Source: Candidatus Electronema halotolerans
Lineage (GTDB): Bacteria; Desulfobacterota; Desulfobulbia; Desulfobulbales; Desulfobulbaceae
Length of the DNA stretch: 32,000 bases
NCBI GenBank assembly: GCA_942493095.1
Contig: OW818675.1
Location: 150,001 to 182,000, forward strand
Reading direction: 5' to 3'
Shown: positions 6,200-24,856 of the stretch, piece by piece
Numbering within the stretch: the first letter of the stretch is position 1
Layout of the letters: each line of letters begins with the position of its first letter
Program-made: the position numbers and the translations under genes
The notes under the pieces: model-generated
Database searches by the model: none
The model's input: the letters and a program-made list of their open reading frames with translations, nothing else
What the model was told of the DNA's origin: nothing

Positions 6200-6721
6200 G
6201 ATACAACGTGTACCAAAAATGGGTCGGCAAGCGGCAGACCTGCCTCGCACATCTGATCCGCCGGGCCGACGGCCTTGCGGAACGCGCTGATCCCGAACTC
6301 GCCGCCTGCGGAAAATGGGCCGCTGCGGAACTGCGGCGGCTATGCCAGATGGCCAAGGCTCCGCCGACCAAAGGCGAATGGTCCGCATTTTATGCCCGGC
6401 TCTGCCGACTTATCCTGCGCTGGCGCGACTGCGACAGTGATGCGGGGAGGTTTGTCCGCCATATTGAGAAGGAGATGGATGCGTTGTTCACTTTCCTGCT
6501 TGAGGAAGGCGTGGAGCCGACAAATAATCTGGCGGAACGGATGATCCGCTTCGGCGTTCTCTGGCGGAAACGGAGTCAGGGCACGAACAGCGGCAAGGGA
6601 AACCGCTGGGTCGAACGCATCCTTTCGCTCCGGCAGACATGCCTGCTCCGGGGAAAATCCACTTTCGAGACGCTCACCGAGGCCGTGCGCTGCTATTTCA
6701 GAGGACAGATGCCGGATTTAA
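6200..6721 (+). pseudogene. 3' fragment of a diverged second copy of the 4775-6199 IS66-family element
   Basis: Collinear with 5645-6166 of the complete copy. I counted about 14 amino-acid substitutions in ~170 aligned residues. It begins directly after the right terminus of the complete copy and is cut at 6721/6722 by an IS5-family element. ORF 6208-6855 is this fragment reading into the IS5 end. Confidence 0.85.
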
Positions 6722-6784
6722 GGGTTCCTCGAAAAATACAACATCCATTCTGCTGCATTTGTTTTGTTATTTTTTATTTTAATA

Positions 6785-6812
6785 TTGAAATTTCAGTCTA
6801 TTATGTTATAAT
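6785..6812 (+). promoter_or_regulatory. Candidate sigma70 promoter of the IS5 transposase
   Basis: TTGAAA (6785-6790), 16-nt spacer, TATAAT (6807-6812), about 40 nt upstream of ATG 6852. Confidence 0.5.
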
Positions 6813-6851
6813 TTCGGCATCAATTCAACTCATGCTGCCGGAGATGCACAG

Positions 6852-12273: not shown

Positions 12274-12966
12274 ATGAAGATATTGTCTGTTATTCCCGCC
12301 CGTGGCGGCTCCAAAGGGATACCAAAAAAGAATATCCAGAAACTGTGCGGCAAGCCCTTGCTTGCTTATTCTATTGAAGCGGCATTGCAGACTGAACTGG
12401 TCAATCGGGTTGCTGTTTCCACAGACGATCAAAAAATAGCTGATGTTGCATTTGAATATGGCGCAGAAATTATCCGTCGTCCCGCAGAACTGGCAGGCGA
12501 TGTTGTTTCTTCTGAAGCAGCTTTGCTTCATGTTTTGGAGACATTGCATAAAAATGAAGGGTATTATTCTGATATTTTAGTTTTTCTGCAATGCACCTCG
12601 CCTTTGATGTTGTCTGCTGATATTGACGGAACCATCCAAGCCTTGCTGGATCAGCAAGCAGACACTGCCTTTGCTGCGGCACCGTTTCATTATTTTATCT
12701 GGTCAAGAAATGCTGACGGCAGCATGATTGGTGTGAATCATGACAAGCAAAAAAGACTGATGCGGCAGCAGCGGCAGAATCAGTTTATCGAAGCAGGGGC
12801 TGTTTATGTTATGCGTGTGCCCGGATTCATGGAGTACAGACACAGATTTTTCGGCAAAACAGTGATGTATGAAATGCCTGAAGAACGATGCTTTGAAATA
12901 GATGAACCAGTTGATTTGCTGATTGCGGAAAAACTGATTGAACATCAGAGAACTGTGCAAGCATGA
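12274..12966 (+). CDS. Acylneuraminate (nonulosonic acid) cytidylyltransferase, NeuA-like (CTP_transf_3)
   Basis: The canonical N-terminus is MKILSVIPARGGSKGIPKKNI..LCGKPLLAYSI. The size (230 aa) fits stand-alone CMP-NulO synthetases. Confidence 0.88.
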   Translation: MKILSVIPARGGSKGIPKKNIQKLCGKPLLAYSIEAALQTELVNRVAVSTDDQKIADVAFEYGAEIIRRPAELAGDVVSSEAALLHVLETLHKNEGYYSDILVFLQCTSPLMLSADIDGTIQALLDQQADTAFAAAPFHYFIWSRNADGSMIGVNHDKQKRLMRQQRQNQFIEAGAVYVMRVPGFMEYRHRFFGKTVMYEMPEERCFEIDEPVDLLIAEKLIEHQRTVQA

Positions 12967-15215
12967 TCATCGACCGCAGCATCAAAAAATATCTCATTTT
13001 TGATGAGGAGCCGATTTATCGGGCCTTTGAGAAGATCAACGCCAATCACCTGCGGATTATTTTTGTCGTTGATCAATATGGTGTCTTGGAAGGTGTTGTT
13101 ACTGATGGTGATCTGCGCCGCTGGATTCTCAATCAAAGCAAAATAGATATTCAGCAGCCTGTGTCTGCTGCTGCCAACACGGATTTCACCCATTGCCGCG
13201 AGAATGAAGCACCGGAGAAGATCGCGGAGCGATTTTCCCGCAAAGTTGAATTTGTTCCTCTTGTTGATGAGCGAATGCGCCTGACTGCGGTTGCCAGTCA
13301 GCGTAAAGTTGATTTTGCCATAGGCAATCGGATAATATCTGATGATGCGCCTATTTTTGTCATTGCAGAAATAGGCAACAATCATAACGGCGATCTTGCC
13401 TTGGCCAAGGAGCTAGTTGAGCAGGCGGTCTGGGCTGGTGCTGACTGCGTCAAGTTTCAGATGCGGGACATGGACTCCTTGTATCGCAATGCCGGAGATG
13501 CTGACGATATTAGTGAAGACCTTGGTTCGCAGTATGTGATGGACCTGCTTTCCCGTTTTCAGCTGAAGCGGGACGAGTTGGCGGCAATGTTTGATTACTG
13601 CCGTGAACGCGGCGCGATTCCGCTCTGCACGCCTTGGGATGCGGAGAGTGTTGCGTTTCTTGAACAGTACGGAGTTGCTGCCTATAAAGTTGCGTCCGCT
13701 GATCTGACCAACCATGATCTGCTGCGGCAAATTGCTGCCACTGGCAAGCCCATGCTCTGTTCAACTGGCATGTCTTCAGAACAGGAAATCAAAGCAGCGG
13801 CCAATCTGCTTCTGCGCAAGGGGGCGCAAGTTATTCTGCTTCATTGCAATTCCGCCTATCCTGCCCCGTTCAAGGACATTAATCTCCGTTACATGCGGCG
13901 GCTCCAAGAAATAAGCACCTATCCGGTCGGCTATTCCGGGCATGAGCGCGGTTGTCATATTGCTTTGGCGGCAGTCGCGCTGGGAGCCAAAGTCATTGAA
14001 AAGCATTTCACTCTTGACCGTTCGTTAGAGGGCAATGATCACAAGATCAGCCTGCTGCCGGAAGAGTTCCGCAGCATGGTTGAGGGAATCCGAGAAGTTG
14101 AAGCGGCCTTGGGCAACGGCGGCGGACGCGCTTTGTCGCAAGGAGAGCTGATCAACCGGGAATGTCTCGCCAAAAGCATTGTCATCAATCAGCCTCTGAA
14201 AAAAGGGGAGATGATCACCGCCGCAATGCTGGAGGTCAAAAGTCCGGGCAAGGGCCTGCCGCCGTACAAGAAAGACAAACTGATTGGTCAGCCTGCGCGG
14301 CGGGATTTGTCGGCAGGTGATTTTTTCTATGAAGAAGATTTGTCAGATGCCGCTGCCGCACCCCGGCGGTATCATTTTGTTCATCCTTATGGGGTTCCGG
14401 TCCGCTATCACGACCTGCATCAGATTGCCGCTGCCTGTCCCTTGGACCTGCTCGAAATTCACTTGAGCTATAAGGATTTGGACCTTGATCCACATCGTTT
14501 TTTCACACAGCCGCTGCCGCATCGGCTGGTGGTTCACAGCCCGGAGTTGTTCAGCGGCGATCATATTCTTGATCTTTGCGCCGACGATGCCGCCTACCGG
14601 CAGCATTCCATAGCCGAGCTGGGCCGGGTGATCGCAGTGACACGGGAGCTGAAGCCGTATTTTTCTACCAGCGAGCGTCCGCTGATTGTGGTCAATGTCG
14701 GCGGCTTCAGTGCTGACCGTTTTATTGCTCCAGAAGAAAAAGAGGCGAAATATGCTTTGCTGCGCGACAGTCTGGCGCAGATTGATCAAACTGGAATTGA
14801 ACTGATTCCACAGACCATGCCGCCTTTTCCGTGGCATTTTGGCGGCCAGCGCTGTCATAATCTTTTTGTGACAGTGGACGAAATACTGGCATTTTGCCGG
14901 GAAAACGGGTATAGAGTATGTCTGGATGTGTCGCATTCCAAGCTGGCCTGCAATCATTGCCGGGAATCCTTTTTTCAATTTATTGAACAGGTTGCGCCAG
15001 TGACAGCCCATCTGCATATTGCAGATGCCCGCAGCGTGGATGGCGAGGGGCTGCAAATCGGCGAGGGTGAGATTGATTTCAAGATGCTGATGCGGAACTT
15101 GGCAGAGCTGATGCCGGATATTTCTTTTATTCCAGAAGTATGGCAGGGACATAAAAATAATGGGCAGGGATTCTGGACTGCGTTAGAGCGGCTGGAAGGC
15201 TCTTTTTTGAAATAA
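12963..15215 (+). CDS. Fusion protein: CBS pair + NeuB-type nonulosonic acid synthase + SAF domain + xylose-isomerase-like TIM barrel
   Basis: One uninterrupted 750-codon ORF. aa ~1-115 form a CBS pair (VLEGVVTDGDLRRWIL; FVPLVDERMRLTAV). aa ~125-395 are NeuB-like (FVIAEIGNNHNGDLALAKELV..AGADCVKFQ; GYSGHE; IEKHFTLDR). aa ~395-455 are SAF-like (KSIVINQPLKKGEMIT..LEVKSPGKGL). aa ~470-750 look like AP_endonuc_2/xylose isomerase (LVVHSPE.., VVNVGG, IELIPQTMPP, CLDVSH, HLHIADA). ATGA overlap with the cytidylyltransferase gene. Confidence 0.85.
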   Translation: MIIDRSIKKYLIFDEEPIYRAFEKINANHLRIIFVVDQYGVLEGVVTDGDLRRWILNQSKIDIQQPVSAAANTDFTHCRENEAPEKIAERFSRKVEFVPLVDERMRLTAVASQRKVDFAIGNRIISDDAPIFVIAEIGNNHNGDLALAKELVEQAVWAGADCVKFQMRDMDSLYRNAGDADDISEDLGSQYVMDLLSRFQLKRDELAAMFDYCRERGAIPLCTPWDAESVAFLEQYGVAAYKVASADLTNHDLLRQIAATGKPMLCSTGMSSEQEIKAAANLLLRKGAQVILLHCNSAYPAPFKDINLRYMRRLQEISTYPVGYSGHERGCHIALAAVALGAKVIEKHFTLDRSLEGNDHKISLLPEEFRSMVEGIREVEAALGNGGGRALSQGELINRECLAKSIVINQPLKKGEMITAAMLEVKSPGKGLPPYKKDKLIGQPARRDLSAGDFFYEEDLSDAAAAPRRYHFVHPYGVPVRYHDLHQIAAACPLDLLEIHLSYKDLDLDPHRFFTQPLPHRLVVHSPELFSGDHILDLCADDAAYRQHSIAELGRVIAVTRELKPYFSTSERPLIVVNVGGFSADRFIAPEEKEAKYALLRDSLAQIDQTGIELIPQTMPPFPWHFGGQRCHNLFVTVDEILAFCRENGYRVCLDVSHSKLACNHCRESFFQFIEQVAPVTAHLHIADARSVDGEGLQIGEGEIDFKMLMRNLAELMPDISFIPEVWQGHKNNGQGFWTALERLEGSFLK

Positions 15216-15222
15216 CAAGAAA

Positions 15223-16926
15223 ATGGAACAACAGAAATATATTCTTGGCTTAAATTATATCGGCCATGATGCGAGCGCATCCCTGCTGCGCAATGGCGAG
15301 GTGCTTGCCTCTGTCATGGAGGAGCGTTTCTCCAGACAGAAGCATGACCGCTCTTTTCCAATGCAGGCAATTCAATACTGTCTCAAACATGCTGGCATCA
15401 GTGTGAGCGATCTTGAAGCGGTCTGCTATTACATGGAGCCGGAAGAGCATTTCAATCAGCGGGTGATTCATCATCTGGGTCGATATTATCCGCGATCTGC
15501 ACCACTTTTTTCTGACATGCTCGCCCGTGCTCTGAAAGTGAACAATGTTGAACGGGAAATTCGGGAGCGGTTGAATTATCTTGGCAAAATTTATTATGCC
15601 GATCATCATAAATCGCATATAGCAAGTGCATTTTTTCTGTCTCCGTATCAGGAGGCAGCAGTCATTTCTATTGACGGACTGGGAGAAATCACTTCAACTG
15701 CTGTTGCGGATGTCTGTGGAACAGAAATCAAGATTCTGAAACGGATCAATTTTCCTCATTCCTTGGGAATGCTTTACAACGCAGTAACCCATTATCTCGG
15801 CTTCAATGCGGTCAGCGACGCTGGAAAAGTCATGGGCTTGACTTCCTATGGTGACCGCAGCGTCTATCTTGACGAGTTTCGCCAAACAGTCTGTCTGCTG
15901 GATGACGGTGGCTATGAGCTGGACCTTGATTATTTTGAATTTCCTTTTCAGCGTGACCTGTGGGTCAGCGACAAATTTATCAAACTCTTTGGGCCGAAAC
16001 GAGAAAAGAACGGACCGCTGGAAAAAAGGCATCAGGATATTGCGGCGGCTCTTCAAGCCTGGCTGGAGGAAGTGTATATTCATCTTGCCCGTTATGCCAA
16101 ACAGGCCACTGGGCGCGAGCATCTCTGCCTCTCCGGCGGGGTGACGCTCAACAGTGTTGCCAATGGCAAGCTGCTCCAAGAAGAATTGTTCACAGATATT
16201 TTTGTGCCCCCACCAACCGGCGATGACGGCACCTCAATCGGCAGCGCGCTGCTGTACAACTATGAGGTGCTGGGCAACAGGCAACGCTGTCCTCTGCAAA
16301 ACGGTTTTCTTGGCCCTGCCTACTCAGATGAAGAGATTGCAGCTGCCTTGCAACGCTTCAATCTTGCCTATTATAAATCTGCGGATGTCTGCAAGGAAGC
16401 AGCGGCCATGCTTGCAGAGGGCAAAATCGTTGGCTGGTTTCAAGGGCGGATGGAAGCGGGGCCAAGGGCACTCGGCAACCGGAGTATTTTAGCCAATCCT
16501 GCTCTTGAGCATATTAAGGACACACTGAATGCGCGAGTAAAATTTCGGGAACCTTTCCGGCCTTTTGCACCCAGCATTCTTGCCGAGGATGTCGGTGCAT
16601 GGTTTGAATACGACCATGAGGCCCCATACATGCTTTTTGTTTTTGACGTGAAAAAGGAGAAACGCAGTCGAGTTCCCGGCATAACCCATGTGGACGGCAG
16701 CGGTCGCCTGCAAAGCGTGGACCGCGAACGCAATCCCAAGTATCATCGGCTGATCAGCGAATTCAAAAAGCTGACTGGGATTCCGATGGTCATCAACACC
16801 TCGTTTAATATCAAAGGTGAGCCTATTGTCAACACGCCGGCAGATGCAATCCGCTGCTTTCTGGGTAATGGGATGGACTGTTTGGTGCTGGGTGATTTTC
16901 TTATTAAGAAGCAATCAGAATGCTGA
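15223..16926 (+). CDS. Carbamoyltransferase, NodU/CmcH family
   Basis: ILGLNYIGHDASASLLRNGEVLASVMEERFSRQKHD (N-domain), GGVTLNSVANG, and FREPFRPFAPS..ITHVDGSGRLQSV..VINTSFNIKGEPIV (C-domain) are hallmark motifs. Confidence 0.9.
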   Translation: MEQQKYILGLNYIGHDASASLLRNGEVLASVMEERFSRQKHDRSFPMQAIQYCLKHAGISVSDLEAVCYYMEPEEHFNQRVIHHLGRYYPRSAPLFSDMLARALKVNNVEREIRERLNYLGKIYYADHHKSHIASAFFLSPYQEAAVISIDGLGEITSTAVADVCGTEIKILKRINFPHSLGMLYNAVTHYLGFNAVSDAGKVMGLTSYGDRSVYLDEFRQTVCLLDDGGYELDLDYFEFPFQRDLWVSDKFIKLFGPKREKNGPLEKRHQDIAAALQAWLEEVYIHLARYAKQATGREHLCLSGGVTLNSVANGKLLQEELFTDIFVPPPTGDDGTSIGSALLYNYEVLGNRQRCPLQNGFLGPAYSDEEIAAALQRFNLAYYKSADVCKEAAAMLAEGKIVGWFQGRMEAGPRALGNRSILANPALEHIKDTLNARVKFREPFRPFAPSILAEDVGAWFEYDHEAPYMLFVFDVKKEKRSRVPGITHVDGSGRLQSVDRERNPKYHRLISEFKKLTGIPMVINTSFNIKGEPIVNTPADAIRCFLGNGMDCLVLGDFLIKKQSEC

Positions 16927-16954: not shown

Positions 16955-17881
16955 ATGGATGATTTCGAAGGAAACAAAAAGAAATTTGAAGCAGACACTC
17001 GCCAACTTTTTCATAAACTTCACAGTGCTCAAGCAGATAGTGAATATATTTTTTACCGGCTGACTTCATTGCTTTCAACAGATTATCTAAAGGTCCCAGA
17101 AAATTTTTTTCAAGGCAAGATATGTTTAGATGCAGGTTGCGGTTCAAACGCAAATGCTGTCTATGCCATGCTTCAGATGCAAGCAGAAAAAGTCTATGCC
17201 TTTGATCTTGATGCCAGTATATATGAAACAGCACCGCAAATGTTGAAGGAATTTCCTGAAAGCCGCTATGACTTGCGTACTGGCAATGTTCTCAACATAT
17301 CTTTTACTGACAGTACCTTTGACTTTGTCCATTGCGGCGGTGTCCTGCATCATTCTGCTGATGTGCTGCAAGGTCTGCGGGAACTCGGCAGGGTGACTAA
17401 GCCTGGAGGCCTTCTCTATATTCACACCTACGGAGCAGGTGGACTTGTTCGTGAAATGACCTCTTTCTTTCGAGAAAAATATAATCATGATGAAGTCTTC
17501 AAAGGGCTGATCGACAATTTGACTGCGCAAAAATTGCAGCAGGGTCTCTTTGATATTTTTTTCGCTATGGATCGGTATGGAGACTCGTTTGGAACGAATA
17601 TTCCTGTCAATATTGTCAAAGAGCTTGTTGATGATGATTTGGTGCTCACTGTCCAAGATCGTATAGCTGCTCCAGCATATCATGAACATACTGAAGAGCA
17701 GTTACGGGCCTGTTTGGAAGAAGAAGGGTTCAGTCAAATAGAGCGGCTTGCTCGCTATCCGTATTTGAAAAATATACGACGTTTTCTGAGTCCTCTTTAT
17801 TATGAATACAGCTCTGAAATAGCTAAATTCTGTTACGGAAGTGGATTAATTCAGCTAAGAGCTGTAAAAAAAGCTGCTTAG
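16955..17881 (+). CDS. Class I SAM-dependent methyltransferase
   Basis: SAM-binding motif ICLDAGCGSNANA, then FDFVHCGGVLHH and VTKPGGLLYI. The substrate cannot be inferred. Confidence 0.8.
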   Translation: MDDFEGNKKKFEADTRQLFHKLHSAQADSEYIFYRLTSLLSTDYLKVPENFFQGKICLDAGCGSNANAVYAMLQMQAEKVYAFDLDASIYETAPQMLKEFPESRYDLRTGNVLNISFTDSTFDFVHCGGVLHHSADVLQGLRELGRVTKPGGLLYIHTYGAGGLVREMTSFFREKYNHDEVFKGLIDNLTAQKLQQGLFDIFFAMDRYGDSFGTNIPVNIVKELVDDDLVLTVQDRIAAPAYHEHTEEQLRACLEEEGFSQIERLARYPYLKNIRRFLSPLYYEYSSEIAKFCYGSGLIQLRAVKKAA

Positions 17882-17882
17882 A

Positions 17883-18629
17883 GTGAACAAGTCCTTGTAT
17901 TCAATCATCACTGTTTGCTTGAATAATGAACAGGGAATTGCAAGAACTTCTCAATCCATTCAAGCGCAAACATATAAAAATTTTGAATGGATTGTCATTG
18001 ATGGAAATTCTAAAGACAGCTCTGTTGCTGTTGCCAGACAGAATCCCTCGCTTACGCATCTGCTTTCTGAACCTGATGATAGCATTTATCATGCAATGAA
18101 CAAAGGAATTGCTTTAGCTCAAGGAAAATATTATCTTTTCCTCAATTCAGGAGATTGGTTATATACTGATACTGTTTTGGCAGAGGCTGCAACGCAATTG
18201 AAAGGAGATTTGGTTGCAGGCTGGTTGACGGTTATTTATCCTGACCGATTTAATAAAACGCCAAAACTCAGGCGGCTTGACCTTCAAGACGTGAGAAAGA
18301 AATTTCTCTATCACAGAACATTGCATCATCAAGCAACTTTCATCAAAAGTAACCTTTTTCAAAGGTATGGAGTATATGACCAAGGGTATAAAATATATGG
18401 TGATTGGGATTTCTTTTTAAGAGTAATTAACAAGGGAGCAAGTTTGGAGTTTGTAAAAATTTGCATTGCAAATTATACTTTTGACGGGATCAGTTCTACG
18501 CTGTTAGGAACAGAATTAAGCAGAAAAGAAATTAAAAAGATCAGGAAAAAGCATTTCTCTTTCTTCTACCGTTTAAAAAGATCAATTATTGATTCAATAG
18601 AAGCTATATTGAACAAAAGAGGTTTTTAA
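17883..18629 (+). CDS. Glycosyltransferase family 2 (paralog of 10102-10980)
   Basis: YSIITVCLNN..QTYKNFEWIVIDGNSKDSS..DDSIYHAMNKGI..GKYYLFLNSGD is the same motif order as the 10102 gene. GTG start 1 nt after the upstream stop. Confidence 0.85.
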   Translation: MNKSLYSIITVCLNNEQGIARTSQSIQAQTYKNFEWIVIDGNSKDSSVAVARQNPSLTHLLSEPDDSIYHAMNKGIALAQGKYYLFLNSGDWLYTDTVLAEAATQLKGDLVAGWLTVIYPDRFNKTPKLRRLDLQDVRKKFLYHRTLHHQATFIKSNLFQRYGVYDQGYKIYGDWDFFLRVINKGASLEFVKICIANYTFDGISSTLLGTELSRKEIKKIRKKHFSFFYRLKRSIIDSIEAILNKRGF

Positions 18630-18636
18630 TTTTACA

Positions 18637-19491
18637 GTGCCAAAGATTAGTGTCGTTATACCATGTTATAATCATGGCAAATATATTGATAGAGCTGTTG
18701 ACTCCATACTTGGTCAAACATTTGCCGATGTAGAAATTATAGTTGTCAATGATGGGTCAACAGATCAGTTTACTGTAAAAAAATTAAATAACTATAAAAA
18801 AGCAAAAACCAAAATTCTGCATACAGTCAATCAGGGGCCGTCAGCAGCTCGGAATATTGGGATAAGTCAGGCAAAAGGAGAATATATTCTTGTTTTAGAT
18901 GCAGATGATCATTATCATTCAACCTTTTTAGAGAAAGGAATTGCTATTTTTGAGCAAGACCATAAAATTGGCATAGTAGCCTGCGGCATTCAAAATTTTG
19001 GTCTTGACTCAGGAAAAAAAATGCCGAAGGGAGGGGATGTGCGTGCATTTCTGGCTCCTTCTGGACTCACGGGCAGTGCTTTGCTGCGTAAAGTGTGCTG
19101 GGAGCAAGCAGGAGGTTACGATGAAAGCATGAAGACATCAGGTTATGAAGATTGGAATTTTTGGATTGATGTGACAAAAAGAGGCTGGCTGGTTCATATC
19201 ATTGAAGAATATCTCTTCTATTATAATTGGCAGGATGATTCAAGAAGAACAATGCTGAACAGTCAACGTGCAGCATCGCTCAGTCATGTCGTCAGAAATC
19301 ATCGGGATGTATTTGGTCAATATGTTGATCTTGTTGTTTTGAATAAAGATAAAGAAGTGATGGCTATGAAAGGACAGCGTGATGCCTTGGCATCTTCTTT
19401 GGAATACAGGTTAGGCTGCCGTCTTCTTCAGTCGCTGCGGTTCTTTCAGAAATTTTTTGGCATGGATGCATCTGTACATGATAATGCTTGA
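18637..19491 (+). CDS. Glycosyltransferase family 2
   Basis: ISVVIPCYNHGKYIDRAVDSILGQTF.DVEIIVVNDGSTD..ARNIGI..GEYILVLDADD (GT-A, DxD); YEDWNFW. GTG start. Confidence 0.88.
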   Translation: MPKISVVIPCYNHGKYIDRAVDSILGQTFADVEIIVVNDGSTDQFTVKKLNNYKKAKTKILHTVNQGPSAARNIGISQAKGEYILVLDADDHYHSTFLEKGIAIFEQDHKIGIVACGIQNFGLDSGKKMPKGGDVRAFLAPSGLTGSALLRKVCWEQAGGYDESMKTSGYEDWNFWIDVTKRGWLVHIIEEYLFYYNWQDDSRRTMLNSQRAASLSHVVRNHRDVFGQYVDLVVLNKDKEVMAMKGQRDALASSLEYRLGCRLLQSLRFFQKFFGMDASVHDNA

Positions 19492-20662
19492 TTCAAAGCT
19501 ACAACGAAATCATTTCAAACCAAAAATTCTTTTTCTTCGTTCTTTTTCTCAAGTAACATTTGCCGCATTTATAGCTGGAGGTTTACATTACGCTCAGTTT
19601 GATTTCATGCAGTATCCTCCTCTTCCAGAGAACAGGCTGGGTAAGCTGGATAAGCTTTATGCTTCAACCGAAGCGAGGAATCATTTACAACGAAATGTCA
19701 TTACTGCAAGAAAAGAACTCAAAAAAAAGATAGAACAAGGTTTTTTTGATCTTATCCTCCTGCTTGATTACGATTCCAGCCTGTTTCGTTATACACAAAT
19801 GAGCTGGTTAAAAAAATTGAGGGACTTAGCGGGGCAAAGTAAATTTTTTTTCAGGAAAAAGTGGTCCGAGATTTTCAAAGAACTTGTTTGCATGCAGGGA
19901 GTGCCATTCATGCCTTCCGCACTTTCCTCCAACAGGACAGCACTTGCTGTAATTGATTTAGATGATTGGATATGCCTTCATAGTTCTGGACAAAAATTGC
20001 TGCAAGCCTGTTCCTCTTATTACAAACGAGAACTGCCCTATAACCGTTTTTTTCTGTACTATCAGCAGCGTCCTGCACCTTGGCGGCTTTGGCGTGAAAA
20101 GCTTGCTCCAATCTGCACAAAAGTTCACAATATCCCTTTGGGAATAGAGGATGAAAAATACTCTGCTCTGAAAAAATTGCGTAAAAATGAACAGGATATT
20201 GATATTTTTTACTGTGGACAATCAACCAGCACAATCAGAATAACCGCTTTGAAGAATTTGAAAGAATTTGCTGCAACAACATCTTGGAATATTGTTATCA
20301 AAGATGACCTGTCTTTTTCAGAATATTGTGCTGCTGTTGCCAGAAGCAAAATTACTCTTTCTATTTCTGGGGGCGGATGGGATTGTTTTCGGCATTATGA
20401 GGCTGTTGCCTTGGGTTCTGTCCCTTTGATGGATGCGCCTACAGTTGATGCCTTCTGGTGGAACCAAGCACCCACAGAACTGTTTTTCACCGGTACATTC
20501 AAAGATTTCCAGCTAAAAATAGATAAACTTTTATCCAATGCCTGCTTACGAAGTAAATGTTTCATTCAATTAGAAAATCTTATAGAGTCACGCATGCTGC
20601 ATTCTAAAATTGTAAAATATATAGTGCATTCATCTTTTAATAAAAAATATGTGGCTTGTTAG
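19466..20662 (+). CDS. Uncharacterised protein, probable glycosyltransferase-like (exostosin/CgeB-type C-terminal region)
   Basis: The C-terminal pattern IDIFYCGQST..R...L......Y......SKITLSISGGGWDCFRHYEAVALGSVPLMD resembles Glyco_trans_1_2/exostosin-type domains. The N-terminal ~230 aa were not recognised. The start is uncertain (TTG 19457; ATG 19466, 19478 or 19484) and overlaps the upstream gene end. Confidence 0.6.
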   Translation: MHLYMIMLDSKLQRNHFKPKILFLRSFSQVTFAAFIAGGLHYAQFDFMQYPPLPENRLGKLDKLYASTEARNHLQRNVITARKELKKKIEQGFFDLILLLDYDSSLFRYTQMSWLKKLRDLAGQSKFFFRKKWSEIFKELVCMQGVPFMPSALSSNRTALAVIDLDDWICLHSSGQKLLQACSSYYKRELPYNRFFLYYQQRPAPWRLWREKLAPICTKVHNIPLGIEDEKYSALKKLRKNEQDIDIFYCGQSTSTIRITALKNLKEFAATTSWNIVIKDDLSFSEYCAAVARSKITLSISGGGWDCFRHYEAVALGSVPLMDAPTVDAFWWNQAPTELFFTGTFKDFQLKIDKLLSNACLRSKCFIQLENLIESRMLHSKIVKYIVHSSFNKKYVAC

Positions 20663-20667
20663 TTTTC

Positions 20668-21672
20668 ATGTTTGGTTATTATCGATTTATCCTTGCTGTA
20701 TTTGTGTTAATGTCACATTTAGACTTTAGTCTTCAAGGATTTAACATCGGGGTTGCGTCAGTTATTTCTTTTTACATGTTGGCTGGTTATGTGGTTTGCA
20801 ATCTGCTGACGAATGTCTTCGTGATAGACAAAACAGTATATGTTCGATTCTACTGCGAACGAATTCTCAGAATATATCCTCAGTATCTTTTTATTGTTTT
20901 GCTAACAATAATATTTGTAATCATTTCAGGAAATATTCTTTATCAAAAAGACATTTATATTCTTTTAAAGAACATTTTAATAGTACCAGTTAATTATTAC
21001 ATGTTTAATGACGTGTCATTTTTTCCGGAAAACAGGTATAGTATTGTGCCAATATCTTGGTCGCTTGGTTTAGAACTGCAAGCGTATATTTTGCTGCCAT
21101 TTATAGTTTTCTACAAAAAAATAAGGGTAGTGAGCACTGTTCTCTCTTTTTTTATATTTATATTGGCATGTTTTGGCTGGCTGAATACAAATTATTACGG
21201 TTACAAGCTTTTGCCAGGTGTTTTATTTATATTTAATACAGGAGTAATTTTGGCCATCAAAACTTACTCTCCAGATAAGCTCTCTGTATTTGATAAATAC
21301 TTTCCACCAATTCTTTATGGATCAGCAATATTGCTCGCAATAACTTTAGGTATTTTCAACAGAGTTCATATCCCGCACTCAATTCAAGTGATTATTGGAA
21401 TTCTTATTTCGATACCAATTATCAGTTATCTTGATTCTTTTGATAAAAAAATTATTTTCAATCGATTTATGGGCAATCTTTCCTATGGCATATTCTTATC
21501 GCATTATCTTTCGATATGGATAGTTAAATTCACATTTGAGATTGACCCACATAGCACTCCTTATTTATTTGCATTTCTTGTTTTTATTCTGTCATTCTTT
21601 ATCGCTGCTGCTGGATCGGCTGGGGTGGAAAGAGTATTTATAAACTGGCGGTACAGTTTGGCAAAAAAATAA
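20668..21672 (+). CDS. Integral-membrane acyltransferase family 3 (sugar O-acyl/acetyltransferase)
   Basis: YRFILAVFVLMSHL near the N-terminus, SWSLGLELQAYILLPF, and roughly 9-10 hydrophobic segments. ATG 20668 is preferred over TTG 20656. Confidence 0.85.
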   Translation: MFGYYRFILAVFVLMSHLDFSLQGFNIGVASVISFYMLAGYVVCNLLTNVFVIDKTVYVRFYCERILRIYPQYLFIVLLTIIFVIISGNILYQKDIYILLKNILIVPVNYYMFNDVSFFPENRYSIVPISWSLGLELQAYILLPFIVFYKKIRVVSTVLSFFIFILACFGWLNTNYYGYKLLPGVLFIFNTGVILAIKTYSPDKLSVFDKYFPPILYGSAILLAITLGIFNRVHIPHSIQVIIGILISIPIISYLDSFDKKIIFNRFMGNLSYGIFLSHYLSIWIVKFTFEIDPHSTPYLFAFLVFILSFFIAAAGSAGVERVFINWRYSLAKK

Positions 21673-21712
21673 AAAGTGTATTTTTAACCCCGTGATCAAT
21701 TACGATGGAACC

Positions 21713-23071
21713 ATGAAGACCAAACCACTGCTGATCATACCTGTGGAAACCAAGGTACGGGAGTTTGATGCTAAACTTTTACTTGCTGTTGTTGCCCTTC
21801 AGCGCGGTTTTGATGTGGTGCTTGGCGCATTATGGGAGCTGAAATTTTTCACCGAGTTGCTTGACCGGGGAATTTTTTTAGACAAGAGCATTGCCAAGAC
21901 CAAGGTGAAATGGTTCAGCCGCTGTCGGCAGCAGGGCCATCGCGTTGCCGCCTTGGATGAGGAAGGTTTGGTCTATTTTGACGCTAAGACCTATCGTCAG
22001 CTTCGCATTTATTCTCCTTCCTTGGAAGCAGCAGATTTATTTTTTGCCTGGGGTAAAAATCAGGCCGAAGTAATGTCTCCAGTAATTGACACATTGATGA
22101 AACGAATACGGCTTGTCGGCAATTCAAGATTTGATCTGCTTCGACCGGAGTTGCGCAAAATTTACAACAAAAATGTTGACGGACTGCGTAAAAAATATGG
22201 CAGATTCATCTTGTTCAACACGAATTTTTCCTTTGCCAACAGTGCCAATAATGACGCATCGTTATTACGGGCTTTTTCTCAGTGTCCTATTGAGACAGAA
22301 CAGCCCGGCTTTTTTGCAGGCTGGACAGAAGCCCAGCACAAGGTCCTGCAATCTTTTCAGGAAGTTCTGCCCTTAGTGCGGGAACGCTTTCCAGAACACA
22401 CGATCATCATTCGTCCGCACCCTTCGGAAGATTTGCAGTTCTGGCACGATGCTGCGCTTTCCCTGAAGCAGACCGTCGTGATCCGAGAAGGCAATGTTGT
22501 GCCGTGGCTGCTGGCTGCTGATGTGCTGGTGCATTGGAACTGCACCACTGCCATTGAAGCTCTTCTGCTCGGCAAACCTGCGATTGCTTATCGCAAAGAG
22601 CAGCCTGATTTTTATGAGCAGCCTCTGCCCAACGCATGCAGTTTTCATGCCGCCAGTTCTGATGAATTGCTGGACATGCTCGACCAAGCCATTGCAGGCC
22701 GCCTCACCGCCTCTCCTGAACAACTTGCCGAGCAGGGCAAAATTCTGGCGCATCATATCTCCTCCTTGCAGGGCAGTCTGGCAGCGGAAAAAATGGTTGA
22801 GGAACTGCTTCAGCTCAGTCAGACCTTTCCTCGCCAACGAAACATCTCTCAGCGGACTGTTCAGGTGATGAAACGTCTATGGCGGGCAGTGCTGGACCAG
22901 CTCGACCGCAGCAGACAGATTCGGGATTCTTATGTTGCGGGAAAATTTCCTGATACCACAGCAGATGAGGTGCAGAAGCGGGTGCAAGTTTTGTCGGAAT
23001 GTTTGGGTTATTCTATGGATATTACGGTTCGGGAAAAATGCCGTAACTGTTTTTCTCTGTCTGCGACATAG
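21713..23071 (+). CDS. Uncharacterised surface-carbohydrate biosynthesis protein; candidate CMP-nonulosonic acid transferase
   Basis: Contains ALDEEGL (DEEG at 21956-21967) and IIIRPHPSE (HP at 22418-22423), which fit the D/E-D/E-G and HP motifs described for bacterial sialyltransferases of CAZy GT38/52/80. The C-terminus reads ..VLVHWNCTTAIEALLLGKPAIAY, like a GT-B nucleotide-binding half. ATG 21713 is preferred over GTG 21692. Confidence 0.55.
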   Translation: MKTKPLLIIPVETKVREFDAKLLLAVVALQRGFDVVLGALWELKFFTELLDRGIFLDKSIAKTKVKWFSRCRQQGHRVAALDEEGLVYFDAKTYRQLRIYSPSLEAADLFFAWGKNQAEVMSPVIDTLMKRIRLVGNSRFDLLRPELRKIYNKNVDGLRKKYGRFILFNTNFSFANSANNDASLLRAFSQCPIETEQPGFFAGWTEAQHKVLQSFQEVLPLVRERFPEHTIIIRPHPSEDLQFWHDAALSLKQTVVIREGNVVPWLLAADVLVHWNCTTAIEALLLGKPAIAYRKEQPDFYEQPLPNACSFHAASSDELLDMLDQAIAGRLTASPEQLAEQGKILAHHISSLQGSLAAEKMVEELLQLSQTFPRQRNISQRTVQVMKRLWRAVLDQLDRSRQIRDSYVAGKFPDTTADEVQKRVQVLSECLGYSMDITVREKCRNCFSLSAT

Positions 23072-23080
23072 CCTTCATTC

Positions 23081-24040
23081 ATGCCTGAGCCGCAAATTGT
23101 TTTTCTTACCTATCTGAATCGGTCAGGTTCCACCTATCTTGCCGACAAATTGAGCCGCTACAAAGCGATAAAAATGGGCATTGAGGCCCGTTTTGTTGAC
23201 GGGTGGATCAGGCCAGGCTTTTTTGTCCGCACTTCGGACGAGTTGCGCTTGTATCTTGACAGGCTGTATCAGGATGCAAAATTTCAGGCATGGCAAATCG
23301 ACCGGGATGTATTGGCCAAGCATCTGGCCGCGCTCACTCTGCCGCTCCGCTTCAGTGATGTGCTGCTGACCGCTTTCTCGCTGTACCAAGGCAGTGCTCC
23401 AGAAAAACACATTTTGGTGCATAAATGCGGTGAATATTACCGTTGTGTGGAAACCATCCGGCAAGAACTGCCAAGGGCAAAATTCATTTTTATCAACCGC
23501 GACCCCCGTGCGGTCTTCAGTTCGCAGAGACGCAGTTTTGACAGTCAAACTGGGCAGCCGATGCAGGAAAATGTGCTTCATTTTCTCTTTGGGTATCTTG
23601 ACACCCTGCGGCGGCTTGAGCAGTTGCGGAACGATCCTGATTTTCTGACGGTCCAGTACGAGGAACTGCTTGCAGATGAAGAAAAAGTGATGGCTGAGAT
23701 AGAACACTTTCTTGGATTGTCCAGCCCAGCAAAACAGACAGACATATCCGGCGGCAGTTATTTTTCTTCAATCCCCAGAGAACAGCAGCATCTTCACGCC
23801 CATCTGCAGGATGGTCGGCCTTGCGCGGACAGGATCACCGGCTGGCAGCGGGAGCTGCCGGTTTCACATATTCTGCTCCTCCAGACTGTGCTTAAACGCT
23901 ATTTGCTTGATAGAGATTTTCCCTTGCACAGACCTGCAAAAACAGGGCTGTCTGCATTCTCGCATTTTGTTTTTCTTCTTTGTTCGTATTGGTACGAATC
24001 CAGCAAGCGGAAGTTTTTTCATATCGAGCATAAATATTGA
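23081..24040 (+). CDS. Sulfotransferase (Sulfotransfer_3-like)
   Basis: 5'-phosphosulfate-binding loop FLTYLNRSGSTYL (RSGST 23120-23134) and 3'-phosphate motif FINRDPRAVFSS (23498-23524). Confidence 0.8.
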   Translation: MPEPQIVFLTYLNRSGSTYLADKLSRYKAIKMGIEARFVDGWIRPGFFVRTSDELRLYLDRLYQDAKFQAWQIDRDVLAKHLAALTLPLRFSDVLLTAFSLYQGSAPEKHILVHKCGEYYRCVETIRQELPRAKFIFINRDPRAVFSSQRRSFDSQTGQPMQENVLHFLFGYLDTLRRLEQLRNDPDFLTVQYEELLADEEKVMAEIEHFLGLSSPAKQTDISGGSYFSSIPREQQHLHAHLQDGRPCADRITGWQRELPVSHILLLQTVLKRYLLDRDFPLHRPAKTGLSAFSHFVFLLCSYWYESSKRKFFHIEHKY

Positions 24041-24046
24041 GAAATT

Positions 24047-24856
24047 GTGAGCAAGTTCAGAGAAAAATATTACGCGCTGACTGCTGTATTTCGTCCTCTG
24101 CCAAACTTTATCATCATTGGAGCGCAAAAAGCAGGAACAACATCGTTGTTTCATTACATTTGTCAGCATCCGCAAGTTTTTGCCAACAACAGCAAGGAAA
24201 TTCATTTCTTTGACCGGCATCACCAATTGGGCGCAAATTGGTACAGTTCTCATTTTCCTCTTGCAGGCCGATTGCAGCCAGGCCGCCGCAGCCGCATGGG
24301 CGAAGCAACACCCTATTATCTCTGTCATCCCCATGCGCCGGGCCGAATTGCCGCATTGCTGCCAAAGGTGAAACTGATTGCCGTTCTGCGGCATCCTGTT
24401 GAACGAGCCATTTCCCATTATTTTCACGAAAAGAAAAAAGGGCGGGAGCATCTTCCCATCTTGGAGGCAATGCAGCGGGAGGAGGAACGCTGCGCCGGAG
24501 AATGGCAAAGAATGCTTGAGGACGCATCATATTTCAGTCAAACTCATCAGTCATTTTCTTATAAACAGCGGGGAATCTATATCGAACAGTTGCAGCGATA
24601 CTGGAAGTTTTTTTCAAAAGAGCAGATTTTTATTGTGGAAAGCAGCCGGTTATTTTCCAAGCCGCAGGCTGTGCTTAAACAAGTATTTAATTTTTTAGAA
24701 ATTGATTCCAGCATAGTTATTCAAGATGTTGCCGTGAAAAACGCCAATCCGACCAAGAAGGCAGCGGAGCCTGAAGTTTATGCGTATCTGAAGCAATTTT
24801 TTGCGCCGCATAATGAGATGCTGCAAAACGCTCTTGGCCAAGATTTCGGCTGGTAA
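24047..24856 (+). CDS. Sulfotransferase (Sulfotransfer_1-like, carbohydrate sulfotransferase type)
   Basis: PNFIIIGAQKAGTTSL (KAGTTS 24128-24145) and IAVLRHPVERAISHY (24389-24415) are the PAPS-binding PSB and PB motifs. GTG start. Not a close paralog of the preceding sulfotransferase. Confidence 0.85.
   Translation: MSKFREKYYALTAVFRPLPNFIIIGAQKAGTTSLFHYICQHPQVFANNSKEIHFFDRHHQLGANWYSSHFPLAGRLQPGRRSRMGEATPYYLCHPHAPGRIAALLPKVKLIAVLRHPVERAISHYFHEKKKGREHLPILEAMQREEERCAGEWQRMLEDASYFSQTHQSFSYKQRGIYIEQLQRYWKFFSKEQIFIVESSRLFSKPQAVLKQVFNFLEIDSSIVIQDVAVKNANPTKKAAEPEVYAYLKQFFAPHNEMLQNALGQDFGW

Follow-up and report, generated by a model that had tools for sequence, protein, structure and literature searches.

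Our sequence comparisons indicate that the 750-aa synthase encoded in the window (the whole 32,000-nucleotide stretch of Candidatus Electronema halotolerans DNA analysed here) is an intact, well-conserved member of a known and widespread long-form family, and that for the window it is an ordinary gene. We observe that the long synthase and a PseF-like cytidylyltransferase form a conserved two-gene cassette, that no precursor-pathway gene lies near it in 40 of 78 loci, that sialyltransferase-like genes recur beside the synthase, that the nearest solved relatives of its C-terminal barrel are MJ1311 and endonuclease IV and not sugar isomerases, that Gln in the window protein takes the place of the first catalytic Glu of ketose 3-epimerases, and that this barrel is hardly ever met except in fusion with NeuB or as its neighbour; these observations are new here. 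Tentatively, and with somewhat less than even confidence, we propose that the cassette is a self-contained route to a CMP-nonulosonic acid, possibly a Kdn-like one, in which the barrel would dephosphorylate the product after condensation and the CBS pair would regulate the enzyme.

Domain architecture and integrity of the synthase

The synthase is encoded by one unbroken ORF (ATG at 12963, TAA at 15213–15215; Table 1). All four modules exceed their Pfam gathering scores: CBS (PF00571, residues 13–56, 35.9 bits, GA 24), NeuB (PF03102, residues 151–386, 294.1 bits, model positions 1–239 of 241), SAF (PF08666, residues 405–460, 38.6 bits) and AP_endonuc_2 (PF01261, residues 521–734, 65.1 bits, GA 31.1). 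The preliminary description had read these four modules in a single protein and named the same four Pfam families as the expected hits, and the scan bears it out on both points. The AF2 model of the full-length protein has a pTM of only 0.46, so that the substrate channelling suggested in the preliminary description is no more than a possibility.

Table 1. Features of the window discussed in the text (window coordinates).
Feature	Position	Strand	Evidence
CMP-sugar cytidylyltransferase, CTP_transf_3	12274..12966	+	Pfam, 94.1 bits; best match PseF
Long-form NeuB-type ulosonic/nonulosonic acid synthase (CBS pair, NeuB, SAF, metal-binding TIM barrel)	12963..15215	+	ORF, Pfam, homologues
N-terminal CBS pair (one clear and one degenerate motif), residues 1–118	12963..13316	+	PF00571, PDB CBS-pair matches, AF2 secondary structure
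NeuB catalytic PEP-condensing TIM barrel, residues 131–386	13353..14120	+	PF03102, motifs
SAF / antifreeze-like domain, residues 405–460	14175..14342	+	PF08666, alignment to 4ipi
C-terminal xylose-isomerase-fold metal barrel, residues 476–750	14388..15212	+	PF01261, AF2, Foldseek, profile vs PDB, ligand mapping
NodU/CmcH-type O-carbamoyltransferase	15223..16926	+	Carbam_trans_N and _C
SAM-dependent methyltransferase	16955..17881	+	Methyltransf_11; syntenic in loci L001 and L003
Two GT2 glycosyltransferases, RXYLT1-like protein, Acyl_transf_3 O-acyltransferase	17883..21672	+	Colinear with Ca. Electronema contig
TIGR04396 'surface carbohydrate biosynthesis protein' / BFO_1060-like	21692..23071	+	369 bits, above cutoff of 125
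Two tandem sulfotransferases	23081..24856	+	Sulfotransfer_3, Sulfotransfer_1

One could argue that an assembly error or a frameshift joined separate genes, which are biologically possible since split pairs of NeuB and barrel genes exist (loci L135 and L139), but nothing speaks for such an artefact and we give it practically no chance: homologues are colinear over residues 1–745 of 750 in numerous metagenome contigs and at least 80 genomes of independent origin, an independent contig, P0001, is 99% identical, and an alignment of 30 homologues is nearly gapless (758 columns for 750 residues). Complete chromosomes of Desulfopila, Crocosphaera, Leptothermofonsia and Electrothrix also carry the full-length colinear ORF. 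Because independent genomes encode colinear full-length homologues, a collapsed frameshift is excluded even without read data, and the single uninterrupted ORF of the preliminary description stands.

Distribution of the long-form family

The synthase has 7613 homologues, and the best 120 of these are all 710–763 aa long and carry the same Pfam set. Full-length colinear homologues occur in at least 80 species, with at least 595 relatives in the same scan; the full-length ones come from cyanobacteria, cable bacteria, Leptospira, Bacillaceae, Proteobacteria, Bacteroidota and Actinomycetota. Identity is 90% to a Ca. Electronema protein, 53–80% to the full-length homologues of 79 other species, and 59–65% over the whole protein across phyla. 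The barrel clade comprises 851 representatives at 50% clustering. Members of the family are found in hundreds of species of bacteria, and cyanobacteria and cable bacteria probably have this sialic-acid-type synthase more often than any other. The rarity of the architecture that had been implied does not survive these counts; the architecture is common. Databases already name such proteins 'sialic acid synthase SpsE/sugar phosphate isomerase/epimerase/CBS domain-containing protein'.

Nor had the fusion gone undescribed. A NeuB–barrel fusion was published in 2012 for L. interrogans (YP_002104 / NP_711794) and was there called 'unique' (Ricaldi et al. 2012; PMC3438082), whereas we find the family to be widespread. 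The L. interrogans protein belongs to the same family and has the same domain order as ours: it matches residues 1–745 at 56% identity, and its L. borgpetersenii counterpart matches over the same residues (55–56% for the two), the AP_endonuc_2 domain included. The CBS pair is not mentioned in those passages of the 2012 account that were searched. Like the window, the Leptospira cluster carries a carbamoyltransferase and a methyltransferase; it also has the complete set of genes for legionaminic acid, with an additional short NeuB, a NeuC/LegG, a DegT aminotransferase, an Fe-ADH and a radical-SAM enzyme, none of which is in the window.

How closely is the barrel tied to NeuB? Among the 80 metagenomic loci nearest to seemingly 'stand-alone' barrels, 69 turned out to be NeuB fusions and nine to be barrel-only ORFs, five of which abut a contig end. 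In L135 and L139, the barrel-only ORF lies directly downstream of a NeuB of 346–347 aa, and in L118 and L147 it is the first ORF called, near the contig start; two further loci (L152 and L160) have no called ORF labelled as a barrel.

The NeuB core and the probable CBS pair

A complete NeuB catalytic domain followed by SAF places the protein among the PF03102 and PF08666 synthases. The catalytic and metal motifs AEIGNNHNG, KFQ, GYSGHE and EKHFT are kept. No substitution occurs at E136, K164, H327 or H348 among 30 homologues, and these residues align with the motifs of N. meningitidis NeuB, with ligands as assigned in 1xuu. Canonical NeuB, PseI and LegI enzymes (1xuu, 8h2c) share the NeuB and SAF domains and these motifs, but they are only about 350 aa long, have neither a CBS pair nor a second barrel, and depend on hydrolases of the NeuC/PseG/LegG type, which are absent from the window.

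NeuB plus SAF aligns end to end with PseI (8h2c, 188 bits) and with N. meningitidis NeuB (168 bits), and the NeuB domain aligns with human NANS at 196 bits and 35% identity. Going by these scores, the domain appears no closer to the phosphosugar-using synthase NANS than to free-sugar enzymes such as PseI. The SAF-loop motif 'KGLPP' resembles 'KGYPP' of NANS. An invariant Ser427 in the SAF domain aligns with Arg314 of N. meningitidis NeuB (alignment to 4ipi), a residue which presumably caps the sugar site from the SAF loop and is essential there. The scores for N-acetylneuraminate synthase (TIGR03569, 330.9 bits, equivalog cutoff 399.65) and for pseudaminic acid synthase (TIGR03586, 256.8 bits, equivalog cutoff 340.25) both fall below their cutoffs; therefore the product cannot be named Neu5Ac or Pse.

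A single CBS motif lies above the Pfam threshold. Both the AF2 secondary structure and a PDB search point to a second, degenerate one; in that search the CBS-pair structures 3fhm, 3kpb and 4o9k align over residues 18–119 (E = 7e-5 to 6e-3). The N-terminus also matches the CBS domains of KpsF/GutQ (E = 0.006). By analogy with such proteins, and with 4o9k, which may contain CMP-Kdo, the CBS pair could be an allosteric nucleotide sensor that perhaps mediates CMP-sugar feedback.

A two-gene cassette

The stop codon of the cytidylyltransferase gene overlaps the start of the synthase gene (gcATGAtc), just as the preliminary description had it when it called the two genes translationally coupled. With the PseF model TIGR03584 the cytidylyltransferase scores 150.8 bits, below the cutoff of 205.7. 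In 62 of 78 loci with a long synthase such a gene is present, at a median distance of 0, and colinearity with the Ca. Electronema contig starts exactly at the cytidylyltransferase gene.

Precursor genes were counted within 10 kb on either side of the synthase in the same 78 loci. In 40 of them, the window included, there is no dehydratase, aminotransferase, acetyltransferase, NeuC, PseG or second NeuB. Here the cassette appears to be self-sufficient and to run without known precursor-supplying enzymes. Among the window ORFs scanned, neither an Epimerase_2 (NeuC-type) gene nor another hexosamine-pathway gene was found, which agrees with what had been noted before. NeuC, LegG and PseG are missing from 66 of the 78 loci, and in nine of the 12 loci that have such a hydrolase a separate short NeuB accompanies it. 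Thirty loci have a 4,6-dehydratase and/or a DegT aminotransferase in the neighbourhood, which could mean a precursor derived from an NDP-sugar and not from a hexose phosphate. In about 20 loci, dehydratase, DegT aminotransferase and PglD-like genes stand directly beside the long synthase, three times without a known hydrolase. Genes that flank the synthase across loci encode PF07388 polysialyltransferase-like, Maf/MptE-like, TIGR04396 and KpsC/S-type Capsule_synth proteins.

Relatives and active site of the C-terminal barrel

The barrel domain alone is modelled by AF2 with a pLDDT of 94.7 and a pTM of 0.93. A Foldseek search with this model gives 187 matches at E ≤ 0.001, and the best 50 of the 187 all belong to the xylose isomerase-like TIM barrel superfamily. 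The top two are MJ1311 and M. tuberculosis endonuclease IV. Fold similarity extends to the sugar enzymes: xylose isomerase, ketose 3-epimerases and UlaE are found at E = 1e-8 to 1e-10 with TM-scores of 0.6–0.67, and UlaE (0.67) and DPEase (0.61) superpose as well as endonuclease IV does. The profile search against the PDB ranks MJ1311 first (5e-12), followed by endonuclease IV (1e-6 to 3e-4), a sugar isomerase (9e-4) and UlaE (0.019). Identity to MJ1311 (3wqo) and endonuclease IV (Nfo; 1qtw, 5zhz) is 17–20%, and MJ1311 is itself annotated as a 'D-tagatose 3-epimerase-like protein' (3wqo).

In the clade of the window (clade A), the active site consists of H525, N578, Q617, D655, H658, H685, D688, E695, E725 and H730. 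The nine-residue trinuclear zinc site of endonuclease IV (H69, H109, E145, D179, H182, H216, D229, H231, E261) is incomplete in the window barrel, which has, in the same order, H525, N578, Q617, D655, H658, H685, D693, G696 and E725. Five of the nine positions are strictly kept in the clade (H69, D179, H182, H216 and E261), and the D693 column is variable. The two Zn1-specific ligands have become amides (H109 to N578, E145 to Q617), with Asn and Gln at these positions in all forms with an N-terminal CBS pair, and H231 is replaced by G696; therefore the trinuclear hydrolytic centre of endonuclease IV cannot form as such. The sister clade keeps seven of the nine positions, including the equivalents of H109 and E145.

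The Glu-Asp-His-Glu metal site of ketose 3-epimerases and UlaE is likewise absent from the window barrel, which reads Gln617-Asp655-His685-Glu725 where the sister clade begins with Glu. Both Glu residues of that site are catalytic bases. In an admittedly weak alignment, E155 of UlaE falls on Q617, which is Gln in all 45 long CBS forms. The core metal triad D655, H685 and E725 is invariant, as is H525, and in the sister clade position 578 is His too; positions 525 and 578 correspond to endonuclease-IV-type ligands that epimerases are not known to use. Apart from the two amide positions, at least 15 polar or aromatic residues do not vary in either clade. Among them are R481, E498, H500, D505, H525, W624, D655, H658, H685, D688, E695, E725, W727 and H730, a pattern that selection on an active site typically leaves.

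Possible functions of the barrel

Since the barrel always comes with NeuB, either in one protein or in a neighbouring gene, its context argues against a role in DNA repair, and unlike for endonuclease IV there is no indication of DNA binding. We lean towards a hydrolase because both profile and Foldseek searches favour MJ1311 and endonuclease IV and because the sister clade keeps seven of the nine ligands. Endonuclease IV also removes 3'-phosphates. A small-molecule phosphodiesterase of the same AP endonuclease 2 superfamily, CbiR, hydrolyses a phosphate ester with conserved His/Asp/Glu metal ligands (PMC7733943); it differs in clade, substrate and genomic context and is a precedent by description, not by sequence.

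In the route we favour, the NeuB/SAF core would condense PEP with one of the common hexose 6-phosphates of central metabolism; the simplest choice is mannose-6-P, which would give Kdn-9-P, and the alternative is ManNAc-6-P. The C-terminal metal barrel would hydrolyse the 9-phosphate, and the cytidylyltransferase would activate the freed ulosonic acid. A route from Man-6-P via Kdn-9-P to Kdn requires a phosphatase (PMC6200933). The proposed logic is that of human NANS/NANP and of the Kdn-9-P synthase and HAD phosphatase of B. thetaiotaomicron and Prymnesium, where NeuC is not needed either; there the phosphatases are separate HAD-fold proteins, whereas the candidate in the window is a fused xylose-isomerase-fold metal barrel. 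The phosphatase mechanism is essentially the proposal of Ricaldi et al. (2012), who interpret an 'endonuclease-like' C-terminal domain as a phosphatase (PMC3438082); we infer that it may extend to the whole family.

An isomerase, epimerase or dehydratase seems unlikely. Such a barrel would prepare the six-carbon aldose (e.g., from a ketose or by 2-epimerisation) or modify the nine-carbon product, as would befit PF01261, a fold common to xylose isomerase, ketose 3-epimerases and UlaE, the invariant metal triad, the lack of a NeuC-like gene in the window and most loci, and the JGI label 'sugar phosphate isomerase/epimerase'. Yet the sequence profile puts isomerases and epimerases below MJ1311 and endonuclease IV, Gln617 stands where the epimerase branch has its first metal-binding and catalytic Glu, and the invariant H525 and the sister-clade His578 stand at ligand positions of the endonuclease IV type. 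Acting on a phosphosugar, an isomerase would leave the cassette one step short, without a phosphatase; acting on a free sugar, it would need a free ketose or aldose, which is presumably no usual cytoplasmic metabolite. The broader idea of the preliminary description, an additional barrel that supplies a step otherwise absent from the pathway, is supported by the self-sufficient cassettes; its choice of an isomerase, epimerase or dehydratase preparing the substrate is weakened.

We consider it quite unlikely that the barrel is instead a phosphodiesterase or pyrophosphatase. Such an enzyme would cut a nucleotide sugar (GDP-mannose, UDP/GDP-HexNAc or a 6-deoxy-diamino derivative) and pass the freed hexose directly to NeuB, in the role that NeuC, LegG or PseG has for canonical synthases. 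Similarity to endonuclease IV and MJ1311 and the CbiR precedent for phosphodiester cleavage would suit this function, and the two cassette genes alone would complete the pathway. The absence of the usual hydrolases from most loci, their company with a separate short NeuB in most others, and the dehydratase, DegT and PglD-like genes beside the synthase, three times without a known hydrolase, would suit it too. However, the 40 loci without any NDP-sugar-modifying genes do not fit, and a route from UDP-GlcNAc needs an extra 2-epimerisation. The amides at the Zn1 site weaken this function and a phosphatase equally.

Finally, as all forms with CBS at the N-terminus have Asn and Gln in place of two sister-clade metal ligands, the window-clade barrel might be a dead or non-enzymatic module, an oligomerisation scaffold or a ligand-binding regulator kept from an active ancestor; this is very unlikely given the many residues invariant in both clades and the high identity of the whole protein across phyla.

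More broadly, we think it possible, though rather less than an even bet, that the barrel is a new non-HAD enzyme class specific to the making of ulosonic acids (a 9-phosphate phosphatase or NDP-sugar hydrolase on an endonuclease IV/MJ1311 scaffold). Starting from a nucleotide sugar or a hexose phosphate of central metabolism, the two-gene cassette would then lead directly to a Kdn-like sugar activated with CMP. For cyanobacteria, cable bacteria and many phyla from the environment it would be the main way to make sialic-acid-like sugars, regulated allosterically by a CBS pair that had been acquired twice, at opposite ends of the protein. The long-form family deserves the attention of biochemists, as it has an obligate second barrel whose function is only predicted. 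With the reaction settled, thousands of genes could be named properly that now go by 'N-acetylneuraminate synthase', 'N-acylneuraminate-9-phosphate synthase', 'TIM barrel protein' or 'CBS domain-containing protein', and it would be clear which acidic sugar caps these sulfated, carbamoylated environmental glycans.

Probable surface glycan genes downstream

In the cable bacterium, the cassette may supply a CMP-activated nonulosonic sugar, similar to sialic acid, that goes into a surface glycan bearing carbamoyl, methyl and sulfate groups. The O-carbamoyltransferase, which probably decorates the sugar or the glycan, is 90% identical to its Electronema orthologue, and such a gene follows the long synthase in eight loci, Leptospira included. 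The TIGR04396 protein is a candidate nonulosonate transferase; its gene occurs in 10 loci carrying the long synthase. Separately, sulfotransferase and PAPS synthase genes recur in the operons of a class of NeuB plus barrel proteins of about 630 aa.

Results

The long synthase gene encodes 750 codons in one uninterrupted frame, from an ATG at 12963 to a TAA ending at 15215, and a Pfam scan places all four modules expected of it above their gathering scores. As had been described, its start overlaps the stop of the cytidylyltransferase gene in an ATGA tetranucleotide. The proposed CBS pair stands only in part: one motif is clear, and the second is degenerate and implied by predicted secondary structure and by a PDB comparison, in which CBS-pair structures align across residues 18-119.

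Features of the window (nucleotide positions) and of the long synthase (residues)
Feature	Position	Strand	Remark
IS30 transposase	553-1470	+	
ISL3 transposase, two ORFs	1549-2175, 2135-2851	+	
IS66 transposase	3052-4560	+	
Second IS66 transposase	4807-6177, trailing fragment 6208-6855	+	
IS4-like DDE transposase	6852-7865	+	
Cytidylyltransferase	12274-12966	+	
Long synthase	12963-15215	+	
CBS	residues 13-56	+	Pfam 35.9 bits
NeuB	residues 151-386	+	Pfam 294.1 bits
SAF	residues 405-460	+	Pfam 38.6 bits
AP_endonuc_2 (xylose-isomerase-like TIM barrel)	residues 521-734	+	Pfam 65.1 bits
TIGR04396/BFO_1060-like "surface carbohydrate biosynthesis protein"	21692-23071	+	369 bits, cutoff 125
Sulfotransferase 1	23081-24040	+	inside colinear block
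Sulfotransferase 2	24047-24856	+	gene start is end of colinear block
Bifunctional class II aldolase/short-chain dehydrogenase	26119-28089		NF006196, 1041 bits, cutoff 831

The preliminary description allowed for an assembly error and implied that the architecture is rare. Neither idea holds. Among 5.8 billion clustered proteins we found 7613 homologues. The best 120 are all 710-763 aa long with an identical precomputed Pfam set, and some homologues carry the JGI name [quoted passage not shown]. Scanning one genome per species gave at least 595 relatives, and in the best 80 loci residues 1-745 of the 750 are covered at 53-90% identity. These 80 include cyanobacteria (Crocosphaera, Nodularia, Dolichospermum, Trichormus and others), Desulfobulbaceae, cable bacteria among them (Ca. 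Electronema 90%, Ca. Electrothrix 74%, Desulfopila 63%), Leptospira interrogans, L. borgpetersenii, Bacillaceae, Alpha-, Beta- and Gammaproteobacteria, Bacteroidota, Nitrospinota, Chloroflexota and Actinomycetota. Because the homologues are colinear and an alignment of 30 sequences has 758 columns for 750 residues (mean column identity 73%), a collapsed frameshift is excluded.

Compared between cyanobacteria, Alphaproteobacteria, Desulfobulbaceae and Actinomycetota, the long synthases in the homologue tables share 59-65% identity. Identity so unusually high between such distant phyla would imply that the gene has spread horizontally and is strongly constrained over all 750 residues. Longer ORFs of 945-1073 aa (loci L028, L051 and L072) are probably not extra fusions; Pfam finds only the same four domains plus an N-terminal extension without domains, most likely from over-called starts in high-GC DNA. 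A Magnetospirillum MAG (L059) encodes a 748-aa long form whose nearest relatives are cyanobacterial (65%). A link from the long form to the unassigned C10 CMP-ulosonic acids of Magnetospirillum gryphiswaldense (SugarBase preprint) is unsupported, and no M. gryphiswaldense protein is among the 120 best relatives of the L059 protein.

The barrel is dedicated to NeuB. With the C-terminal 286 residues as query, an exhaustive HMMER search recovered 851 representatives of clusters formed at 50% identity; for 568 the match had E <= 1e-10. Among the best 150, 45 are at least 700 aa long, 26 are 580-699 aa (NeuB, SAF and barrel without CBS) and 18 are 255-320 aa. Using an alignment of the short forms as query against metagenome contigs, we classified the nearest 80 loci: 62 carry a NeuB-barrel fusion of about 630 aa, another seven also have a CBS-like region, nine have barrel-only ORFs, five of which abut a contig end, and two (L152, L160) have no called ORF labelled as barrel. 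Of the other four barrel-only loci, L118 and L147 have the barrel as the first called ORF, 230-350 bp past the contig start with no view upstream, and L135 (1160-3041) and L139 (5955-7819) are genuinely split versions, with a 273-275-aa barrel directly 3' of a 346-347-aa NeuB gene. The apparent stand-alone barrels thus do not form an independent family; they are mostly contig-edge fragments or members of the ~630-aa class.

The CBS module is not always N-terminal. By Pfam, the order NeuB-SAF-barrel-CBS occurs in L142 (1404-3785), L145 (5606-8215) and L155 (505-3030), and by homology in L144 (5900-8200). Since both orders occur, comparison of these proteins puts CBS recruitment at no fewer than two independent events, at opposite protein ends.

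The NeuB part is nearest to N-acetylneuraminate synthase in NCBIfam (330.9 bits), followed by pseudaminic acid synthase (256.8 bits). Both scores lie below the equivalog cutoffs, so the product cannot be named by similarity. The SAF loop caps the sugar site of the adjacent subunit. Here it reads KSPGKGLPP, with an invariant Ser427 at the position of Arg314 in NmeNeuB, and resembles EPKGYPP in NANS. These features suggest that the sugar is recognised in another way than by the canonical free-sugar enzymes.

A model of the barrel alone is confident (AF2, pLDDT 94.7, pTM 0.93). The best Foldseek matches in the PDB are MJ1311 (3wqo, 2e-11) and Mycobacterium tuberculosis endonuclease IV (4e-11), and UlaE, Apn1, ketose 3-epimerases, Escherichia coli endonuclease IV, xylose isomerases and MbnB come next, all within three orders of magnitude and at similar TM scores of 0.57-0.68. 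Fold alone does not split hydrolases from epimerases, as TM scores of 0.60-0.68 are shared by endonuclease IV, UlaE, DPEase, xylose isomerase and MbnB. A profile of 36 diverse barrels separates the candidate relatives better: MJ1311 scores 5e-12, endonuclease IV chains 1e-6 to 3e-4, a putative sugar isomerase 9e-4 and UlaE 0.019. MJ1311 presumably conserves all nine endonuclease IV ligands.

We mapped the nine zinc ligands of E. coli endonuclease IV onto the family, using the Nfo sequence with ligand positions verified by motif.

Zinc ligands of endonuclease IV and their counterparts in the barrel family
Endonuclease IV	Long synthase	State in family
H69	H525	invariant
H109	residue 578 (window nt 14694-14696)	His or Asn by clade
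E145	residue 617 (window nt 14811-14813)	Glu or Gln by clade
D179	D655	invariant
H182	H658	invariant
H216	H685	invariant
D229	column 693	variable
H231	G696	Gly, adjoining invariant E695
E261	E725	invariant

Residues 578 and 617 covary and split the family into two clades. Clade B, in which CBS is absent or C-terminal, has His/Glu in 73 of 74 metagenomic members, and the barrels of permuted order belong to this subtype. Clade A, with N-terminal CBS and including the window protein, has Gln617 in 45/45 and Asn578 in 41/45 long representatives, and both in all four metagenomic members. Residue 617 also aligns, weakly, with E155 of UlaE (sequence motifs verified), which in the epimerase branch is the first of the Glu residues that bind metal and act in catalysis. 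With Asn and Gln at these positions, the window protein matches the active-site definition of neither endonuclease IV nor the ketose 3-epimerases. The family as a whole leans towards the metallo-phosphoesterase branch. Further invariant residues (R481, E498, H500, D505, E528, W624, D688, W727 and H730) indicate a pocket that is conserved and distinctive.

ORFs were called and clustered in 78 genomic loci with the fused gene, and recurrent clusters were annotated. The dominant partner is a cytidylyltransferase of about 229 aa (62/78 loci, median distance zero). Genes for the enzymes known to release precursors (NeuC/LegG Epimerase_2, PseG) occur in only 12 loci, in nine of which they lie beside a separate canonical NeuB of about 350 aa. 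Within 10 kb on either side, 40 of the 78 loci have no dehydratase, aminotransferase, N-acetyltransferase, NDP-sugar hydrolase or second NeuB; among loci with at least 15 kb of sequence it is 26 of 61, the window included. Hence the cassette of synthase and cytidylyltransferase looks self-sufficient and supplied by a common metabolite.

Several neighbours are candidate transferases for CMP-activated acidic sugars: a PF07388 polysialyltransferase-like gene directly downstream of the synthase in seven cyanobacterial loci, a recurrent Maf/MptE-like PF01973 gene, a TIGR04396 gene in 10 loci, and KpsC/KpsS-type Capsule_synth (PF05159) beside the synthase in the ~630-aa class. Frequent too are wzm/wzt ABC exporters (20 loci), methyltransferases (33) and carbamoyltransferases (8).

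In the window, a colinear block from 12274 to about 24190 is shared with a contig of a Ca. Electronema MAG, with 76-79% nucleotide identity and orthologous proteins 70-90% identical. The window thus comes from a cable bacterium that is related to that of the MAG but not the same. The genes of the block, all on one strand, run from the cytidylyltransferase and long synthase through a NodU-type carbamoyltransferase, a methyltransferase, two GT2 glycosyltransferases, an RXYLT1-like protein and an O-acyltransferase to a TIGR04396/BFO_1060-like candidate nonulosonate transferase and the sulfotransferases. The TIGR04396/BFO_1060-like family has been proposed to transfer pseudaminic or legionaminic acid derivatives in Tannerella. 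Colinearity starts exactly at the cytidylyltransferase gene and the glycosyltransferases upstream differ, which suggests that the upstream block was exchanged as a module. The same-strand cluster is also a GC mosaic, with 30-32% GC in glycosyltransferase genes at 9-12 kb and 47-53% in the long synthase and carbamoyltransferase at 13-17 kb. Five consecutive transposase genes occupy its left edge; at this place in the Ca. Electronema contig are wzm/wzt genes, among others. Just past the glycan genes, in a region of higher GC, lies the aldolase/dehydrogenase gene.

Discussion

The window gene joins a known, widely distributed and already noticed family, and as a genome-scan finding it is ordinary. 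Ricaldi et al. (PMC3438082) noticed the fusion and proposed that, as animals do, the pathway uses a phosphatase on a product phosphorylated at position 9; the family has been characterised only to that extent. Our literature search found no other paper on a NeuB-barrel fusion or a CBS-bearing NeuB, and the text of a large phylogeny of NulO synthases (PMC8208679) mentions neither domain fusions nor CBS. The fusion reported in the preliminary description is confirmed, and its interpretation is partly supported. Interest now centres on the barrel's reaction and on which acidic sugar cyanobacteria and cable bacteria make.

We tentatively favour the phosphatase function. NeuB would make a 9-phospho product, the barrel would remove the phosphate, and the free acid would pass to the cytidylyltransferase. 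Cytidylyltransferases act on the unphosphorylated acid, and since the conserved unit is synthase and cytidylyltransferase only, a phosphatase would complete the pathway. Endonuclease IV hydrolyses phosphate esters. CbiR, from the barrel's superfamily, does so on a small molecule (PMC7733943). The reaction is thus within the superfamily's repertoire. A precedent is the route from Man-6-P through Kdn-9-P and Kdn to CMP-Kdn in Bacteroides and Prymnesium, for which a separate phosphatase is needed (PMC6200933).

Two observations count against a phosphatase, and equally against a hydrolase freeing hexose from a nucleotide sugar. The window clade lacks two ligands, at the H109 and E145 positions, which in endonuclease IV belong to the site holding the nucleophilic hydroxide. 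Moreover, similarity of the NeuB domain to human NANS (35% identity, 196 bits) does not discriminate as a sign of a phosphosugar substrate, being no closer than that to PseI (188 bits; NmeNeuB, 168 bits).

The isomerase or epimerase of the preliminary description seems unlikely to us. It would leave a gap in the pathway, as a phosphatase would still be required for a phosphosugar substrate, and otherwise a source of free ketose or aldose. The nucleotide-sugar hydrolase, which would replace NeuC/LegG/PseG, is more doubtful still, even though it too would complete a pathway from a central metabolite with the cassette alone. A non-catalytic barrel is very improbable, and the remaining probability falls to some other chemistry. 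Channelling between modules could not be read from the full-length model (pTM 0.46), whose inter-domain geometry is unreliable.

The simplest reading of the CBS pair is as an allosteric nucleotide sensor. That it was recruited twice, independently, speaks for the importance of regulating this committed step. One idea, by analogy, is that the CMP-sugar may feed back on it: there is a weak match to the CBS pair of KpsF/GutQ, which presumably binds CMP-Kdo in 4o9k.

Sulfotransferase and PAPS-synthesis genes are frequent in the ~630-aa class. In operons of this class a fused ATP-sulfurylase/APS-kinase recurs with a sulfotransferase (e.g., L117, 42-3835), and the window has two tandem sulfotransferases. 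This suggests that ulosonic-acid and sulfate decoration are repeatedly associated, in agreement with sialylation and sulfation being reported to co-occur in environmental EPS (PMC10483923). A conserved sub-operon follows the long synthase in Leptospira (L. interrogans L052, L. borgpetersenii L054) and in L045 and L156. It comprises a DegT aminotransferase, a second cytidylyltransferase-like gene of about 209 aa, an Fe-dependent alcohol dehydrogenase, a radical-SAM/SPASM protein, a methyltransferase and a carbamoyltransferase, which suggests elaborate side-chain chemistry on the sugar of that lineage.
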